A DNA stretch of 64,000 nt. It comes from a virus. A program made the position numbers and the translations under genes. The notes beneath the pieces are model-generated. The model did no database searches. It was not told where the DNA came from and saw nothing but the letters and a program-made list of their open reading frames with translations. Shown here piece after piece: positions 4,730 through 56,900 of this stretch; position 1 is the stretch's first letter, and each line of letters starts with the position of its first letter. The stretch lies in the IMG/VR virus record IMGVR_UViG_3300030098_005409; one strand, written 5' to 3'.

Positions 4730-5586
4730 TTGTCCTTTTCTTCCCTAAAACGGCGGGCCCAATAACTCATAGTGGATTTATCCAAGCTAGACGTATTAAG
4801 TATTTTATCATACTGATCTATCAAAAAATCCTCTGTTATATCACTCAGATCATCATATACTAATATTGGTAAATCTAGGTAAAAATTAATATTTAGGTGT
4901 CTTGGTATTATAGGAATTGATCCTAAATAAATTGCTTGCCAGACGCGGCCGCAATCAACACCGTTGCCTAGTGGCGAAACCACGTATTTGTGATCATACA
5001 AGTTTTGATAGTACTCACCCATTTTGTTAAAATGGGATGAATTTTCATATTCACTTAAGGGTATATCACACGGCTTTTGTGTAACCCAGTCGTTGTCTTT
5101 AAAGTAATTATATACCTCTCTTCTGTGGCTTGGGTTTGTGTGTATGCCAAAATCTAGGTAAACTAAGTTTTTAAAGTTCTTCTCTACATTGTCTTCATCT
5201 ATAATAGTAAACTCTGGAGAGTCTTTAGCCTCAGCAAATTCTGACGTACCAATCCAAGTTGAGCTTGCTGATCCTAGTGGTATTGATTCTAGGATTGGAT
5301 GATCATAGGTTATATTAATACCGAACCACTTGACAATATTACTCGGTGCATTTCCAAATATTCTTTCATCAATTGGATAATCGCTATGATGTGTTACAAT
5401 TATATACTTGTTTTGCGTGTTTTTTCTGCACTCGTTAAGCAATCCAGCAACAAAATCTGTCTTACTAAACACAATATAGACTCCCGTTTGGTTTGGTAAA
5501 GCCTGTCCTGGTTTGTACACAATATCACATAATGTCTCAAATCTCTCGCCAACAATTCTATCTTGCTGCTCTACAGTACACTTCAT
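4717..5586 (-). CDS. Exostosin/GT47-like glycosyltransferase
   Basis: 'YVVSPLGNGVDCGRVWQAIYLGSIPI' matches the exostosin C-terminal motif. Confidence 0.75.
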   Translation of the reverse strand: MKCTVEQQDRIVGERFETLCDIVYKPGQALPNQTGVYIVFSKTDFVAGLLNECRKNTQNKYIIVTHHSDYPIDERIFGNAPSNIVKWFGINITYDHPILESIPLGSASSTWIGTSEFAEAKDSPEFTIIDEDNVEKNFKNLVYLDFGIHTNPSHRREVYNYFKDNDWVTQKPCDIPLSEYENSSHFNKMGEYYQNLYDHKYVVSPLGNGVDCGRVWQAIYLGSIPIIPRHLNINFYLDLPILVYDDLSDITEDFLIDQYDKILNTSSLDKSTMSYWARRFREEKDKWSL

Positions 5587-6866
5587 TATATTACTCCACT
5601 TAATAGCTGAACATCAACCAAATCTTTTGGCTCTGATCTGTTTTTCTTCATCTGTCGAATTACTTCGGGGCTGGCAAACTTAAGGCCATTATAATAAAAA
5701 TGATTATTTGGGTTAAAGATAATATCATCTTTGTGGTGCTTGTAGTATTTAAGTTCTTCGTTATGACAGTTAATCTCAGTTAGTCCTGTGTCGATGTTGT
5801 CGCCAGCATATAGGAAATCTAAGTCTCTACAGTCACGTAAGCCGTATGCCGCCAGAACTGCGCTCGCGTCAACGCAAAAGTCATCGCGATCGTGGACACT
5901 ATTATTATGCCAGTTCCTGTATTCTTGAAAATAAAATTCAAAGTTTTTAAAATATGTTGGCTTAAGTTGATTTAAAAAATTAATACTATTTTGGTTAAAG
6001 ACGGCGCTAGCGATTCTTATAGTTTCATGGTGATGGTCATTAATGTGAACTGAATGATTTCCAACGTTGTAGAGATCCCTCACGTTTTGCTTTAGGGCCC
6101 TCAGAGTGTCTGGGTCATCAGTCTGCACCAAAAAAACATAAGTCGGGCCCGCAGCATCGTAACACTGCTCAGCCTTAGAATTAACGCCTTGAAAGCCTAC
6201 TTGCCAATTACCTGCCCAGGGCTCCCCGTCGTAAAGTGTTCTAATAAAATTAAAGGGGCCGTATTTATCTAGTGGCACCGCCTTTTCGCACACCACATCA
6301 GTGCTATTTACAATTATTTCTCTTGCTTTCTCAAACTTACAGAGGGCAGTAGGAAACAACGTAATTATAAAAGTGTTATTTTTTAATTTAGCATAATTTA
6401 AAGCCATGGCATCTAAATAAGTTTGGTTTAGGCCGCCTTCCACATATACATCACGATTTTTAAAAAAGTAGTAGCTACAGTCTAATTGCCCAGAATCGGG
6501 AGGAGCCTCATAACATGCTACCATTTTATCATCAAGTATGCTTGATGCAATACGATGAGCACCGTTAAGAGGAGATTTTGTACTCTTATCAACTGGAACA
6601 ATGGATCTGTTCTCATCAAATCCATCTCGTTGAATCGATTCAATAATGTTGTTGAACTCATTAACAAACTTTTCTTTGCTTTGTTTATTAATATCGCCAA
6701 ATTCAGAAAAGTTATTCCAAACTTGCAAGTGCGATAGGTACAGGTCTAAAGGGAACTCACTTTTTACATCTTTATACTTAGCATAATAGTGCTTGGCCGC
6801 TATGTCAAAACGAAATGGTGTTAACAAACTAAGAGCATTGCGGTAGAAAGTATCGTTTTTATTCAT
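5586..6866 (-). CDS. Multidomain protein: ParB/Srx-like, NDK-like and nucleotidyltransferase-like segments
   Basis: 'PLNGAHRIAS'; 'KQNVRDLY...NHSVHIND'; 'DASAVLAAYGLRDCRDLD'. Confidence 0.5.
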   Translation of the reverse strand: MNKNDTFYRNALSLLTPFRFDIAAKHYYAKYKDVKSEFPLDLYLSHLQVWNNFSEFGDINKQSKEKFVNEFNNIIESIQRDGFDENRSIVPVDKSTKSPLNGAHRIASSILDDKMVACYEAPPDSGQLDCSYYFFKNRDVYVEGGLNQTYLDAMALNYAKLKNNTFIITLFPTALCKFEKAREIIVNSTDVVCEKAVPLDKYGPFNFIRTLYDGEPWAGNWQVGFQGVNSKAEQCYDAAGPTYVFLVQTDDPDTLRALKQNVRDLYNVGNHSVHINDHHHETIRIASAVFNQNSINFLNQLKPTYFKNFEFYFQEYRNWHNNSVHDRDDFCVDASAVLAAYGLRDCRDLDFLYAGDNIDTGLTEINCHNEELKYYKHHKDDIIFNPNNHFYYNGLKFASPEVIRQMKKNRSEPKDLVDVQLLSGVI

Positions 6867-47726: not shown

Positions 47727-48599
47727 CTAACTATCATCGCCAGGAAGTTCCGGGTCATCCATTTCCGAAAGTTGAATTTCACCGTTGACATACCGTTGAA
47801 GTTGGTCAAGCTGAAAATCGGTAAAGTGCTTGAACCCATGAGCCTGTTCGGCAGTCTTGCCGCCTCTGAAGTGTTCCTTTGTAACCTTCGCGAGGGTCTT
47901 TGCACCAACCCACTCGGAACTAAAATCCTTGACGGCAGGCGAAACGGTTTCCCACTCTCCCTCGGCACCGACATACTCATTCCTGTCATAATTATTATAT
48001 TGATCATAGTACGACTTCACCCTTCCGTGGCGCGGCACAATGCCAGGAATAGAGGGAATGGCAAGAGTAAGTGACTTGCCATAATAGCCAGGGTCCTTGA
48101 TTCCCATAACATCAAACGATGCGAAAGGAACATTGTTATTTGACCACGCGTTAGTCGCAGGGATACCAACATAATGGGTCATAAATTGCCCCGGAGTATC
48201 GTGCATAACCATTCCAACAGGAGGGACGTAATTGTCATCCGAGGGATACAAGTATTGTCCGTCTCTTCGATAAGAAATCTTACCAGCGCGAACCATCGCA
48301 CCAATACCAAAGCCGGTATCCTTTGCCCACTTGAGGACAGCACGACGCCACAAACTCAGTTCAAACTGAAACTGCGACTTGTGTCGCTTCATAATCGCAC
48401 AACCGGCGCGGGTGTGACCTTCTTCGCCACAATAACTACAAATCCTTGGCTTTGCCTTGCGGTCAAGAATTGCCTGCCACTGGCGACCATAATAACTGTT
48501 AGGGTCCTTTTCCCATTCCTTCTTCAATTCAGGACAACTGGTTTTGTTGTGTCCTGATTGGTAACAATGGCTACAACGTACTGTGCCAGTATAACTCAT
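47727..48599 (-). CDS. Protein with two CCHC zinc knuckles
   Basis: 'CSHCYQSGHNKTSC' and 'CSYCGEEGHTRAGC'. Confidence 0.75.
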   Translation of the reverse strand: MSYTGTVRCSHCYQSGHNKTSCPELKKEWEKDPNSYYGRQWQAILDRKAKPRICSYCGEEGHTRAGCAIMKRHKSQFQFELSLWRRAVLKWAKDTGFGIGAMVRAGKISYRRDGQYLYPSDDNYVPPVGMVMHDTPGQFMTHYVGIPATNAWSNNNVPFASFDVMGIKDPGYYGKSLTLAIPSIPGIVPRHGRVKSYYDQYNNYDRNEYVGAEGEWETVSPAVKDFSSEWVGAKTLAKVTKEHFRGGKTAEQAHGFKHFTDFQLDQLQRYVNGEIQLSEMDDPELPGDDS

Positions 48600-50423: not shown

Positions 50424-51095
50424 CTGACCTCCAGTGTCTATATACTACCACACGACGACACGATTGTCAAGTCATCTTCGTCTAACCAGCATCCGTCACC
50501 GGGTCCAAAATGAACCCAATAGGAAGGGACATATAGACGCTTCCAGCTTTCCAGTATAATTCCAACTTTGCCAGCCAAGTTCTTACCACTAATCGCGGAG
50601 GCACCCAAAGTTTCCTTATTGACTTTTACCATATCGCCAACTTCATACACGGCTTATATCCATTCTTTAAGTGGGGCTGAACTCCCTCATCATATGTATA
50701 CTATAGCACGCGCGTGGGCTCCTGTCAAGGTTTTTAATCGTCTGATTCTACGCTCCCGATAATTTCAATTTCGTCGTGGTCCACATAAAACTTACCATAC
50801 TGAGGATGGTGTAGAAGGTAATCCCACTTACTCGGAACGCCCGATTCTGGGTCATACCAAAGAGGAAAAACTTCCATAACCACAGCAACGTCGCCTGTTT
50901 GAATATCGCGAACCAAATCACCGACTTTCATTGCTACTCGCCACCCTCAAGCATGCTTCACTCCACCAACCTTCGTTATTTGCAGTGTGCCATACGATAT
51001 AATATCCGGCGTGCGAGCGGGACAAATCCATTCGGACTATTGTTCCAAGTTGGCGCTCTTTCGTGAGGATCTGACCCCCTACGTATTCCACCAAA

Positions 51096-51254
51096 TCACC
51101 GACTTTCATTTTCTTCCGTCTCTTCGACAGTTAGGACCTCAACAAACTCTGGCTCTGCCGAGTAATCACTGTTTTCAAACTTAGTCCGAGCTTCATCTTC
51201 TGATTCGGCATCGACATAAATTTCCATACGATAACAAAGGCGATAAACTTTCAT
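51096..51254 (-). CDS. Small acidic protein (copy 2 at 54095-54244)
   Basis: MKVYRLCYRMEIYVDAESEDEAR... in both copies. Confidence 0.7.
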   Translation of the reverse strand: MKVYRLCYRMEIYVDAESEDEARTKFENSDYSAEPEFVEVLTVEETEENESR

Positions 51255-51461
51255 TCTCTGATAATCTCCAATTGGTCTTGCCACATTGATTCTTCAATAT
51301 CTTCCCAATCAAAAAAGTTATTTCTTTTACAGACAGACCACCATATATTAATTCCGTGTTCTTCTTCTCTAGTTACAATCCCAATGTCGTCAACATCTTG
51401 ATCATTGTCGGTTACATCGGCACCCCACCAGCGCACTAATGAGCCAATCTTCAAGCCATCA
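51096..51461. repeat. About 365-bp two-gene duplication, copy 1 (copy 2 at 54085-54451)
   Basis: Hand alignment of 51121-51460 vs 54111-54450: 36 mismatches in 340 nt (about 89% identity). Confidence 0.95.
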
Positions 51462-51845
51462 TAATCAATTTTTGCCACGGCTGATTATCTCCAACTTGTC
51501 GCGACGGTGGTAAACATCCCATGACTCTCCCTTAGCCGCAGTATCAAAGTAGCGCACCCAAACATGTATGCCTTCGGTTGCTATAATATATCCCGCTCCG
51601 TCGTCCGCCCACTCTCCGCGAGCCTTCACAACATCACCAACTTTAGGCTTCGTTCGCACGATGCACCGTTATTCCGTTGTCCGCTTCCCAGCGTCTCATT
51701 TCGCCAAAGTAATAGTGGTATATCATCTCATGGCAATCCACAAATTTAACGTGGACGCCGAAGTCATCAAACATACCATCTCGCTGAACCCGTACAACGA
51801 TTCCTATTTCTTTACCACTTCGCTCGTGAAATTCAATCAAATCAC

Positions 51846-51909
51846 CGGGGTTGTATTCGCTCATAATGGCAGACAATCTTTCTCGGAGTGCGGGGTTGTA
51901 TTCGCTCAT
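51846..51909. repeat. 19-bp direct repeat CGGGGTTGTATTCGCTCAT
   Basis: Exact copies at 51846-51864 and 51891-51909. Confidence 0.95.
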
Positions 51910-52691
51910 CGTGCTTATAGCATACCACGACAGGTTCAGTCTGTCAAGTCTTTATTGACTACCTGCAAATCATCGGGGACCTCCCAATCGTGCTTTCCAT
52001 CCATAGTGTAAACTCTGTATTGTTCCACGCCAGTTGTGAGCAGATGTCGGCTGTCCGTAATAACACCGAGAGTGTCAGTGTATCTCCACTCGCCACCACC
52101 ATCGAACACATACTGAGCCTTTTTCAGTATTACCGCATCACCGATTTCCATTTACCCGCTCCAAAGCAAACTCTAATTCATGTTGAGGAGGATAATCAGG
52201 CCACTTAACAATGACAACTCCCTCTTCATCTGCTTCTTTAAGAATAATGCCAAGCTCTGTATACAATGTTTCGTCTCGCATGATCGTATGATACTTAACC
52301 AAGTCACCGACTTGCACTGATTACCTCCACATCCCAATCGTTAGGATGGAACTCCCGGCGTTTTCCGTCACGGTTACACACAACGGAAAACCAGAAACGG
52401 TTCACGCCGTCGTTAGGGATAACAAGTATGCCGAAATAACGGTCATCGTCACCGCCCCTAATCTCTTTGTGTGTAACCACTACCAAATCACCGATTTGCA
52501 TTACTTACCCCAACGAAAGGATTTCAAAGTCTTCCAAAGGACGCCACATTGTGGGTCCATCACCAGCGAATTGAATGTATTCGCCCTTTCCATCACACTT
52601 ATACGCTGCGACAATCTTCATAATCATCGAACAATCGCGCACAAGCGCACCAATCATAGGCATACCGCGACTTAAAGTCATTTTACTGTCC

Positions 52692-53072
52692 TTAGTATTG
52701 AATGGAGGTTACGGGAGTAATATCCCAATAGCCGGAACCACGAACAACTACGTCACCATAATCCTCGCCAACTCTCGCAAAGCGGAAAAGCTCTTCTGAA
52801 TGTACTTCTTCGCCATCGTCGTTGGTTATTTCCCATTCCCCCGACTCTGCATCATCCATAAACTTCTCAATCGCATCAATGTCGGCATAGCCTTCATACC
52901 ACTTGATTGAATCCCACACGAGAAGCCACGACTTATCGTTTTCGTAGTTTCGCTCAAGATTGCCGTACTTAAACACCAATTCTTCCGCCTCTTTGTTCTT
53001 AGAAGTAGCCAGCAGAAGAAAAGGAATTAGTTCCTTGCTGATAGCCATTACAACTTGCGAGCGATAACCCAT
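52692..53072 (-). CDS. Hypothetical protein
   Basis: GGAGG SD; 'MGYRSQV...WDSIKWY...RVGEDYGD'. Confidence 0.7.
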   Translation of the reverse strand: MGYRSQVVMAISKELIPFLLLATSKNKEAEELVFKYGNLERNYENDKSWLLVWDSIKWYEGYADIDAIEKFMDDAESGEWEITNDDGEEVHSEELFRFARVGEDYGDVVVRGSGYWDITPVTSIQY

Positions 53073-53082
53073 TCCATACCTC

Positions 53083-53319
53083 CTAGTTCAGGCGTTGTGC
53101 TAGTGCAGCGAGTTCGCCATAATTGACAGCTCGGGCCGGCAAATACTTTAGGTCAACGTCATTTCTCTCCAAATGACTCATTACCCCGTAGAGTGAAGAG
53201 GGAGAAGTAGAGTGATCCCATTCTGTGTTCTTACTCAGGCGGCGGCTCACCTCGTGAACAGATGCCGAGGTTTGCCATGTTTCTATGAACAATTTGTAAT
53301 CTTCGTGGCGTCGTGCCAT
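53083..53319 (-). CDS. Hypothetical protein, possible HTH
   Basis: After promoter 53343-53371; 'SVHEVSRRL'. Confidence 0.55.
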   Translation of the reverse strand: MARRHEDYKLFIETWQTSASVHEVSRRLSKNTEWDHSTSPSSLYGVMSHLERNDVDLKYLPARAVNYGELAALAQRLN

Positions 53320-54084
53320 GTGTGTACCTCCATTGTGCTTACAGCATACCACGGGATGCGGCTGCTGTCAACCCCTAATCGTTAATCGTGAAATCGTAGG
53401 GCTCGTGCGGAATGATAGAAAGCGCCTCGCGTCTTTCCCACGAATCACGGTGCGGGGCCAACTCGTCTTCCCACTGCACACACAACTGCTGGAATGGTGT
53501 CTCCACCTCATAGCTGCTGTCGATTACGGTTCCCACCGAACCAGTTCCAAAATGCTGTACCTTATCCCCAATATCCATTTCTAGTTTCCTTTCTTTACTA
53601 CCTTCACATAATTTCCCATGATGAAACCCGTTCTGTTGGGCCATGCGACAATTGGATTCTTTCCGAAAGTATCCCCCACGCGGAAATCAACAATAATGCC
53701 CAACTCGCCGCTGTTGATATTTCTTACCAAGTCACCGACTTTCACTTACCATCTCCAAAGCAAACTCTAGGTCATACTCAGGGTCCTTGTCGGGCCACTT
53801 AACCAGAACAGTACCGTCAGTATCCATTTCAATAACAATCCCAAGCTGTAGTGTTTCGCCTTCGGTGTGCAACAAACCAGGGTGATACTTAACTAAATCA
53901 CCTACTTGCACTGACTACCTCCAAGTCTCTCCGCCTTACCCAGCTAACATCCTTGCCGCCATCATCGAACCACCGAACACGTAGTTCCTTGATACCGCGG
54001 ACAGGGAGGTCGTGAATGAATTCCTCTACAACTATTCCCACGCAATCAGCCTGAAAACCCTGCGACCGACTGAGCTTTACTAGA

Positions 54085-54451
54085 TCGCCGACCTTCATTC
54101 TCTCTCCGTCTCTTCGACAGTTAGAACCTCAACAAACTCTGGCTCTGCCGAGTATTCACTATTCTCAAACTTAGTCCGTGCTTCATCCTCTGATTCGGCA
54201 TCGACATAAATTTCCATACGATAACACAGGCGATAAACTTTCATTCTCTGATAATCTCCAATTGGTCCTGCCACATTGATTCTTCAACCTCGGACCATTC
54301 AAAAAAGTTGTCTCTGTTGCAAACAGACCACCAAATAGTAACTCCGTTTTTTTCTTCTCTAGTTACGATTCCAACGTCGTCAACGTCTTGATCGTTGTCA
54401 GTTACATCGGCACCCCACCAACGAACCAAAGTGCCAATCTTCAAGTCATCA
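54085..54451. repeat. About 365-bp two-gene duplication, copy 2
   Basis: See copy 1. Confidence 0.95.
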
Positions 54452-55918
54452 CTTATCATGACTGATTGCCTCCACATACTCTTCACCTACAATGAAGTTT
54501 TCCCCATCAGCGTGAAGTTCTATGCGCCGTCGTCGCCCTGGACGCCGGGAGTTGATAATACGAACAACCACACCAGCCAAATCACCAGCGGCAGGTGCAC
54601 TGCTCCACTCTGAGGCCCAGTGTGACCAAACTGCCAAATCACCGCGTTTCATTTTTACTCACAACTTTCCAATGTCCAGGGTCGGCCATTTCAGGGCGGT
54701 CGCTACCAACGAATTGAATCTGTATCCGGTTGAACCATGATATACACTCGGTGCTTATCACAATAGCAAGTGGAGCGCCGGGATGATGCTTTGGTGTAAC
54801 CAAATCCCCAACCTGAAACGAGCTAAGAAATGTGCTCTTTTCCATCAATCTTCCTCCACTGTCTATAGTATATCAGGTGGAGCCAGAGTTGTCAAGTCGT
54901 AATCGTCAATCCACGATTCCGAGCCGTCCATGAAAAGGACGAGCCATGTGAGGGCGTGTTGTCTCCTCCACAGTTGAGTAATAATCCCAACTTTTCCCCC
55001 CAGAGCATGGCTGGAAGGATGAGCTTGATGCTCTGACTTCACTTTTACAATATCACCGATGCCCATTTAAGCCTCCGGGGGAGCTGGTGGTGGTGGAACT
55101 ACGGGCTCCAAGTCTGCCGACCTGAGTCCCATTAAAAGAGTTATTCCCTCGCATTCGCTTCGACGTATACTATAGATGGTTTCCGGGCCATCTAGCGAGA
55201 CATGAGTAATGACGCAAATTCCCCAGCTAGGGTAAGCAGTAAGAGTGACCTCATCGCCTACGCCCACGGTGTTTCCTCGTGTAAGAATCGAATTCGTATA
55301 TGGCTAGAATTACAAGTGCCAAACCAATGAGGCCAACTTCTTTGGCTACCCTTTTAGCGCGGGATTTCCACTTGTCTTTCATGGCGCGGCTTCCCTCATG
55401 ATGCCTAGAGCATACCACGGTTATACCTCTAGGTCAAGTACTTTCTCAGATTGTTCAAATAGCTCGTAAAACTCTTCTCTCACAAGTACCGGGCCACGTT
55501 CTCCCTGGGGCCAGATTTCCACCCAACCCTCCAATTGCAACGCCGTCACTATGCTCACCGGCACGAGGACCCCCATTTCTCGGGAAAGAATGGGAACCAC
55601 CTTGTCTCCTATGCGAAACTTGAAACTCATACTGCCTCCACATGCCGCCACGCATCCGGCCACATCCAACACACGGTTCCCTCAATAGAAACTTCCCGTA
55701 CATTGAAGAAGCCTCCATAGTAACTCGGGTCTGTCATTTTTTTCTGCCCTAAATAAATCATTAGAGGTTGCCCAAGTTGAACCCATTTTAGAGTTTGGTT
55801 TTTATGAGGCACGCTGATGTCGAGCCAGTGATCGTCTCCGCTGTCGCGTAAATACTTATAAATTCGGGGCTCCTTGAATCTGAGGAGCATTCCTGGTTTT
55901 AGTTCTGAAACTTTCATA

Positions 55919-56362
55919 TCACCACACCACCCATTCGGCGGCGGGGTGGTCCGCATAATCATATGCCCTAAAAAGGAAATCATAGCTGTTCGCACAGTGA
56001 TAAGAATTTTCAGGGGAGCCGATATTGTCAAAAGACACGCGCCACTCATCCTGCGCAACAGGGGCTAGAGAAAAAACTGTGTTATAACTATACAATTCGC
56101 TTCCTTCGATGGAGGCATATACGTCCTCTATTTCATCGGGGCCATAAGTGGTGTCAGGGTTGGCTACCAGCGTCCAGTGCGAGATTTGGTCGCCCACGCT
56201 ATATTCACAATAGACGGCAGCGTCATTAAACCAAACGTCATATCCCCCAGGGAAATGGGTGTAGTGAGAGCGGCGCTCTGACGGGTGCTCGACTAGCACC
56301 AGACACCCTCCCACAAGGGCTGTAATTCCCCCTATGGCTGCGACCTTAATCAGGCTTTTCAT
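55919..56362 (-). CDS. Putative lipoprotein
   Basis: MKSLIKVAAIGGITALVGGC lipobox; follows promoter 56430-56458. Confidence 0.6.
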   Translation of the reverse strand: MKSLIKVAAIGGITALVGGCLVLVEHPSERRSHYTHFPGGYDVWFNDAAVYCEYSVGDQISHWTLVANPDTTYGPDEIEDVYASIEGSELYSYNTVFSLAPVAQDEWRVSFDNIGSPENSYHCANSYDFLFRAYDYADHPAAEWVVW

Positions 56363-56678
56363 CATAACATCCTTCCGCATATGTTGTATCATAGAGAGAC
56401 GTTACCTCTCTCTTTAGGCTACTCTCTACAGTATGCCACAACCCAAGGGCCATGTCAAGGGTTTTTTTGTCTACTTTTCCCTGCGTGGCTAATTCAAGGA
56501 TATTCTCGATTCCTACGCGAAACTTATGCCGCTGCTGCTGTATCTCTAGTATCTCAACGAAATAAGAATAGCACTTACTCATCTGTTCCTCTTGAGCTTG
56601 CAGAGTGGATATACCCACACATAGCACAGAGAGCAAGCAAAGCAAAAATAAACAACATCGTTGTAAGCCCTCTTTCAC
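56346..56678 (-). CDS. Putative secreted protein
   Basis: Signal-like N-terminus; ACTATTTA 4 nt before the GTG. Confidence 0.5.
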   Translation of the reverse strand: MKEGLQRCCLFLLCLLSVLCVGISTLQAQEEQMSKCYSYFVEILEIQQQRHKFRVGIENILELATQGKVDKKTLDMALGLWHTVESSLKREVTSLYDTTYAEGCYDEKPD

Positions 56679-56900
56679 TCACTAAATAGTTTTTTGAGGA
56701 ATCTTCTGCCAATAATCCTGATTGGTGTATCGTTTCTCGCCCACAGTTTCGGGATAAGATTTGTCGTAAACTATCACCAATTCGCACACCTCGGCTCCTG
56801 AACTCGTCACATCTACGTTTAGGACAATTGCCAGGCGACCGGAGTCCTGTCTATATTGTACCAAGTCTCCCGAAGCCAAGCGCATGTCCTAAATAGTAGC

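Follow-up and report, generated by a model that had tools for sequence, protein, structure and literature searches.

We detected a chain of overlapping mini-genes in a 64,000-nt stretch of viral DNA (the window; IMG/VR record IMGVR_UViG_3300030098_005409) from an uncultured marine T4-like phage. All genes between 50400 and 57000 lie on the minus strand, and the mini-gene array belongs to a hyperplastic region of early type. The window encodes 22 members of one family of small proteins (55–70 residues; detected with a hidden Markov model built from the window copies), and neighboring genes in the array repeatedly overlap by 14 nt, forming a short dual-coding sequence that we call the joint. The initial annotation had claimed that the start of each gene supplies the stop of the previous one, and this can be read directly from the sequence at all six sites it named: each upstream stop is the TGA within the GGTGA of the Gly-Asp codons of the next gene. 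A seventh 14-nt overlap, absent from that annotation, lies where the open reading frame (ORF) at 54639–54848 ends in NETR inside the start of the ORF at 54449–54652 (54639/54652). Allowing up to two mismatches, the pattern RTGMAAGTCGGTGA had 11 matches in the window, all on the minus strand, whereas shuffled sequences averaged 1.04 matches and none of 100 shuffles reached 11. The overlaps are confirmed as correctly observed and not due to chance.

The joints, named by upstream and downstream gene, all lie on the minus strand and differ in detail. At X/Y (50910–50944; repeat family D2), the ORF of X (50918–51109) ends in SSNESR with its TGA at 50918–50920, and Y starts with ATG at 50931. At B'/X (51088–51122), the non-family gene B' (ORF 51096–51284) ends in EENESR within the motif of X, which starts at 51109. 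The joint D1/Z (52130–52164) carries the variant ATGGAAATCGGTGA (M-E-I-G-D), and D1 (52138–52317) ends in NGNR, while C1/D1 (52296–52330) has the consensus GGAGGTAATCAGTGCAAGTCGGTGA with a GTG start and an upstream end of SASR (C1, 52304–52501). Two further GTG starts are found at C2/D2 (53890–53924; start 53911), where C2 (53898–54098) ends in SASR, and at D2/E (53724–53758; start 53745), where D2 (53732–53911) ends in SESR. The seventh joint spans 54631–54665 and reads ATGAAACGCGGTGA. Two sites depart from this layout. At B/C2 (54077–54111), the motif lacks the TGA because its Gly codon is GGC, and B stops instead in an ATGA with a 4-nt overlap at the C2 start (54098). The start of C1 carries the motif without an overlap (52480–52514), as an in-frame upstream TAA ends 3 nt before its ATG at 52501.

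The proteins joined in this way are hypervariable, with gene-body amino-acid identity of ~36% within and between genomes alike, though the amino-acid sequence is conserved at both protein ends. Family members begin with M-[KQ]-V-G-D-L-V, contain a central G-I-V strand, often with Trp, and end with L-E-V-[IV]-S. An AlphaFold2 (AF2) model built from a 29-sequence alignment (predicted local distance difference test score 84.8) placed strands at residues 6–9, 20–28, 37–43, 51–55, and 59–63. Foldseek matched this predicted five-stranded model to the PWWP, Tudor, KOW, HspQ/YccV, PetP, and SPbeta YorP barrels with template modeling scores of 0.64–0.69 and E-values above 0.04, and a profile search of PDB sequences gave weak KOW/L24/NusG matches (best E 0.035). 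The N-terminal x-V-G-D-x-V strand of the family resembles the KOW motif. Unlike the KOW, Tudor, HspQ, and YorP proteins, however, these proteins match no Pfam or PHROG family significantly in sequence: ten array proteins scanned against both databases gave only a sub-threshold RpoY match for B' and a weak phrog_2827 match for 54863–55066, and ESM Atlas neighbors were all viral "hypothetical proteins". It is reasonably secure that these are SH3/KOW/Tudor-like five-stranded barrels, an assignment of fold class only.

From 12 viral loci and 80 metagenome loci, we compiled 188 distinct joints at which one family gene overlaps the next by 14 nt. Their conserved dual-coding block runs from -12 to +21 (~34 nt), with the consensus TGGAGGT-AT-A / RTG MAA GTC GGT GAT TTG GTA A. 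The upstream frame reads L-E-V-I-[SN]-[AE]-S-R-stop and the downstream frame M-[KQ]-V-G-D-L-V. The upstream codons TTG GAG GTA ATC hold a Shine–Dalgarno (SD) sequence, GGAGG, for the next gene, whose start codon follows 6–7 nt on and is often GTG, and the TGA at +12 to +14 arises from the downstream GGT GAY codons. An SD core (GGAG, GAGG, or AGGA) was present at -16 to -5 in 146 of the 188 joints, and GTG starts were far more common at joints (97/188) than at other canonical family starts (20/150; p 6e-14). Stops in further frames were also frequent: 159 of the 188 joints have a frame-0 stop no more than 12 nt upstream, Lys-type starts add a TGA in frame +1, and 105 joints have stops in all three frames. 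We considered whether TTA at Leu6 or GTA-A at Val7 provides compensating frame +1 stops in Gln-type joints, and this was unsupported, with GTAA in 57% of Lys-type joints vs 27%.

Coupled overlapping genes of the ATGA or TGATG kind, known from operons and phages, have the upstream stop at the next start or shortly past it, with an SD within the upstream coding sequence. The joint shares this arrangement, with its TGA at +12 to +14 and the SD core inside the upstream ORF, but differs in that its overlap is 14 nt long, is standardized over ~190 distinct joints, and is encoded by the termini of one protein family; most joints also carry stops in other frames. No RNA structure beyond that of shuffled sequences was found at seven joints folded as 75-nt RNAs (z -0.42 to +0.91). 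We rejected coupling through hairpin unmasking, as well as a fold like that of attC or of the phage repeats discussed below, because the joints lack RNA structure. The enrichment of GTG starts, the position of the SD, and the lack of RNA structure together fit termination–reinitiation coupling. In the window, no predicted promoter-like site falls at a 14-nt joint and no terminator-like site falls at a joint; promoter-like sites occur only in gaps between gene runs, so the motif joints are internal to operons of ~6–8 genes. The initial annotation had described the joint as both terminator codon and translational coupler. The stop stands as described, and translational coupling across the joints is plausible given the SD cores, the frequent GTG starts, and the placement of the promoter-like sites.

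Codon choice within the joint departed strongly from that in gene bodies at most positions. The upstream Glu is GAG, which makes the SD, in 96% of joints vs 37% in gene bodies, and Gly4 is GGT in 183/183 joints vs 28%. Val3 is GTC or GTA in 116 of 125 Val codons (37% in gene bodies), and codon 3 ends in C or A in 172 of the 188 joints, so the upstream protein ends in Arg. Leu6 is TTR in 91% of joints vs 38% in gene bodies and Val7 is GTA in 64% vs 20%, while Asp5 is GAT in 120/183, near the background of 58% (p 0.054). Constraint on the joint is therefore position-specific, as opposed to a uniform homogenization.

Such position-specific constraints match the needs of the SD, the start, and dual coding, as would be expected if the joint were a by-product of history. 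By that account, an ancestral unit whose ORF ran 14 nt into the next copy was duplicated in tandem, the joint was kept by protein and initiation constraint, and rearrangements are ordinary illegitimate or homologous events that selection filters to gene boundaries, leaving the motif without a particular role. The near-background Asp5 wobble and the amino-acid-level conservation of both protein ends also favor this account, to which we give perhaps one chance in five. It sits less easily with the persistence of the overlap: of the 64 family-to-family junctions in 12 non-redundant viral loci, 54 (84%) keep the same 14 nt, far above the one third expected for random frames, despite the low identity of the gene bodies and a scrambled gene order. 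Moreover, among canonical family starts that do not overlap an upstream family gene by 14 nt, 70% keep GGTGA, compared with the 28% for GGT in gene bodies.

The initial annotation had also proposed that the genes are shuffled as cassettes, and gene synteny is indeed not conserved in the relatives, where orders are scrambled. The window and the identical contig L024 have C1, D1, and Z, then w5 and w6, then A', B', X, and Y, then w11. In contrast to this order, L015 has C1, r3, X, and Z followed by four different cassettes before w11; L028 and L030 have C1, D1, X, and Z; L026 and L086 have A', X, and Y without B'; L033 and L035 have A', Y, and Z; and L039 and L040 have C1, n8, and Z with two to three tandem copies of w11. 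Across 26 loci, orthogroup X was flanked by 11 different genes on the right and 10 on the left. The claim that cassettes can be shuffled in "any order" was overstated, since some of them carry only part of the two halves of the joint. Cassette content also varies among near-identical strains. Contigs from four marine runs (two studies) match 52677–56895 with zero mismatches, and in three of these runs 51102–52169 of the window is almost uncovered, while in the fourth it is covered ~6x vs ~30x; such contigs show zero-mismatch strains that lack this segment. As a separate observation, the family member at 50438–50650, which begins MYEVGDMV and lies immediately upstream of the anchor gene, is repeated in tandem two or three times in the metagenome contigs L038, L039, and L040.

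Apparent shuffling could be an artifact if metagenome assemblers had mis-joined strains at a ~30-nt repeat, and two observations fit this: joint repeats share up to 31 exact bases, and run contigs contain many motif-to-motif "joints" with short sides. We consider this explanation highly improbable. Every variant order was found in two contigs, and the pairs L026/L086, L033/L035, and L039/L040 come from different data sets (L028 and L030 belong to one accession series), a recurrence that argues against assembly chimeras. L024 repeats the window order, separate Logan contigs span its junctions at 50931 and 51109 in the same way, and the repeat is short (~31–35 nt).

At the junctions that were compared with relatives, identity is 95–100% through the motif and drops to ~20% directly after GATTTRGT, and the joint of ~31–35 nt is the only DNA similarity of the window to 13 other viral contigs (14 loci), many of which hold it in multiple copies. 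Two indels were resolved to the nucleotide, and both have direct motif repeats at their ends. The 175-nt B' indel has the direct repeat AATGAAAGT on both sides, and L026 and L086 hold the single joint GAGAATGAAAGTCGGTGAT there. The X1 cassette indel of L028 is bounded by ATGRAAATCGGTGAY, with flanks ATGGAAATCGGTGAT and ATGAAAATCGGTGAC, where the window has one copy and then Z; its exact crossover is not placeable, as the relative used is only ~83% identical. Motif repeats end both indels, although in B', a gene outside the family, only ATGAAAGT is shared with the motif, and this counts against a joint that is a mere by-product of duplication.

The pair A'–B' (51096–51478) is itself a copy of the two-gene unit A–B (54095–54486; both minus strand), with ~90% identity that stops just after the motif of the next gene. 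A 1-nt indel near the 3' end of B places the stop in ATGA in the upper copy (B) and in GGTGA in the lower copy (B'), and with this shift both off-frames are closed. B and B' (54095–54244 and 51096–51254) are non-family cassettes of 49–52 aa beginning MKVYRLCYRMEIYVD, whose first letters, ATGAAAGT, are those of the family motif. The RpoY match noted above, to the RNA polymerase epsilon subunit family, is sub-threshold (E 0.004; 17.7 bits against a cut-off of 25).

Several results weigh against a specific role for the joint in recombination. Motif joints exceed other gene boundaries only slightly in the number of homology-block ends (2.9 vs 2.2 per site), a near-parity that also favors the by-product account. 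Exchange takes place at gene boundaries in general, and two types of boundary show it, the motif joints and promoter-type units (repeat family D4). BLAST blocks extend through the shared motif, which makes the crossover position inside it unplaceable, and selection for intact arrangements would bias surviving breakpoints to boundaries, so the coincidence of breakpoints and joints is partly expected. Joints differ from each other by ~9–10 of 35 nt (~27%) and the usable exact homology is ~8–20 nt; it is therefore short, and "microhomology" is the apt term. Homogenization of joints within genomes is weak (9.1 vs 10.0 differences), again as the by-product account would have it. We did not use concerted evolution of joints within a genome as support, this ~10% effect being explicable by lineage composition. 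Fifteen motif-to-motif "joints" in run contigs were likewise set aside as evidence for excision or circles: their shorter sides measure 19–36 nt, the length of the motif, and they therefore reflect cross-mapping from other cassettes or phages. The proposal that the joint serves as a microhomology for recombination is borne out in part. The initial annotation had named conserved synteny in relatives, or breakpoints unrelated to the motif, as findings that would speak against it, and the comparison yielded neither. Comparative breakpoints, with two indels flanked by motif direct repeats, support recombination at the joint, and they suggest that it is not motif-specific.

An alternative is that a dedicated, still unrecognized site-specific recombinase acts on the joint, as in a true integron-like system. 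Strong conservation of nucleotides, beyond amino-acid needs at some sites such as the Leu6 and Val7 codons, is in keeping with this, and yet we think it very improbable. Neither a tyrosine nor a serine recombinase (PF00589, PF00239) was found in the two relatives searched, the 148-kb IMG/VR contig that is closest to the window (G001, 82% complete) and a 190-kb contig that also carries the barrel family (G002, 100% complete), whereas both encode a RecA/UvsX-type recombinase along with a T4 gp23-type capsid protein. Nor does the joint contain a hairpin or inverted repeat, and the ~27% variation among joints is a further point against such an enzyme. The complete relative holds 12 motif copies, all on one strand inside ~10 kb.

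Taken together, the best explanation, to which we assign a probability of about 0.7, is that the ~34-nt dual-coding joint couples the barrel genes and serves as a short recombination homology. In this explanation, fast-diverging barrel genes are arrayed in operons of ~6–8 genes headed by predicted sigma70-type promoters, and the conserved N- and C-termini of neighboring family members overlap in a chain, forming one joint each time. Ribosomes that terminate at the TGA may re-initiate at the start just behind it, so that the chain is translationally coupled, and the repeated joint may offer short homology to the general recombination system of the phage, presumably UvsX-type as in the relatives. 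Unequal or inter-phage exchange at joints could then add, delete, or move whole genes while leaving neighbors intact and expressed. A stronger version, in which the joint is a selected plug-and-play module that packs SD, start, and three-frame stops into ~34 nt so that cassettes exchanged through short-homology recombination between co-infecting phages are terminated, re-initiated, and expressed at once, is more tentative, and we rate it as possible but rather doubtful. If it were true, the array would be a coding-sequence counterpart of integrons and of the phage repeats described next, and marine T4-like phages would share a pool of small barrel proteins that target the host and are rapidly reshuffled.

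The closest known system is the modular shuffling mediated by promoter early stem-loops (PeSLs), short intergenic regulatory repeats made up of a sigma70 promoter and a terminator stem-loop, between which T4-type phages recombine to shuffle ORFan cassettes (PMC2839356, PMC4122927). Mini-circles were detected by the PeSL authors, who also remarked on the integron analogy and on the absent integrase (Arbiol et al. 2010, PMC2839356; Comeau et al. 2014, PMC4122927). Both systems occur in T4-like phages, where short conserved repeats border the small ORFan genes of a plastic early region; the repeats also delimit the indels or replacements that distinguish close relatives, and the exchange is attributed to general recombination, with no integrase involved. 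The present joint is a coding, promoterless variant: it lacks both promoter and stem-loop, two defining features of a PeSL, lies inside coding sequence with two reading frames in use, belongs to a single protein family, and would link genes translationally within one transcript. PeSL-like, promoter-type boundaries also lie between the gene runs of the window. Beyond the PeSL papers, we found no description of this junction or protein family in the literature.

The array resembles integrons in its small, mostly promoterless genes, its upstream promoter, its recurring boundary sequence, and a cassette content that varies between relatives. It differs in that no IntI-type integrase was found in the relatives, the joint has no attC-like fold, and the boundary is a coding overlap at which exchange is presumably driven by homology. 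To call the array integron-like, only lacking an integrase, is fair as an analogy, given the RecA/UvsX match and the lack of a tyrosine or serine recombinase in the two relatives, but the concept is not new, as it was proposed for PeSLs in T4-type phages by Arbiol et al. 2010 (PMC2839356).

Most unknown genes of T4-like phages reside in hyperplastic regions, and how such genes turn over without loss of expression is poorly understood. The joint suggests a compact solution: the conserved termini of one protein family would serve at once as ribosome site, start, stop, and recombination homology, so that genes gained, lost, or moved remain expressed within an operon. Judging by the number of distinct joints, marine viromes contain the system in abundance, and strains identical over 4 kb differ in adjoining cassettes. 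This makes the array a natural setting in which to study how gene repertoires turn over, how dual coding constrains sequence, and how translation is coupled. A large family of small early proteins, so far uncatalogued, is a further implication.

Three operons, all on the minus strand, make up this part of the window, and the sigma70-like promoter sites (TTGACA-17-TAxxxT with an extended -10 TG) are confined to the gaps between runs, at 54895, 53371, 51947, and 50728. The upper operon (53375–54848), downstream of the promoter-like site at 54895–54867, comprises 54639–54848, 54449–54652, A (54241–54486), B, C2, D2, E (53581–53745), and F (53375–53578). Behind the site at 53371–53343, the middle operon (51936–53352) comprises 53083–53352, 52692–53072, 52505–52681, C1, D1, and Z (51936–52151). 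The lower operon (50734–51909), behind 51947–51919, holds 51643–51909, 51465–51659, A' (51251–51478), B', X, and Y (50734–50931). A repeat unit of ~29 nt heads operons at 50682–50710, 51901–51929, 53325–53353, and 55391–55419, and at three of these four places it overlaps the -10 hexamer of a sigma70-like site. These units are promoter-type cassette boundaries and putatively PeSL-like.

Elsewhere in the window, genes of phage type include PhoH, DUF6267/phrog_455, a PrkA–SpoVR module, and MoxR/VWA, and a blastn comparison of the array with INPHARED phages gave no match. Adjoining the array at 47727–48599 is a gene for a 290-aa protein with CCHC/C2H2-type zinc knuckles near the N-terminus (Pfam zf-C2H2_10, E 2e-6). 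In the close relative L028, a gene for a UvdE UV-damage endonuclease (PF03851, E 1e-59) lies within the mini-gene array at 5285–6202, a place where the window has none.

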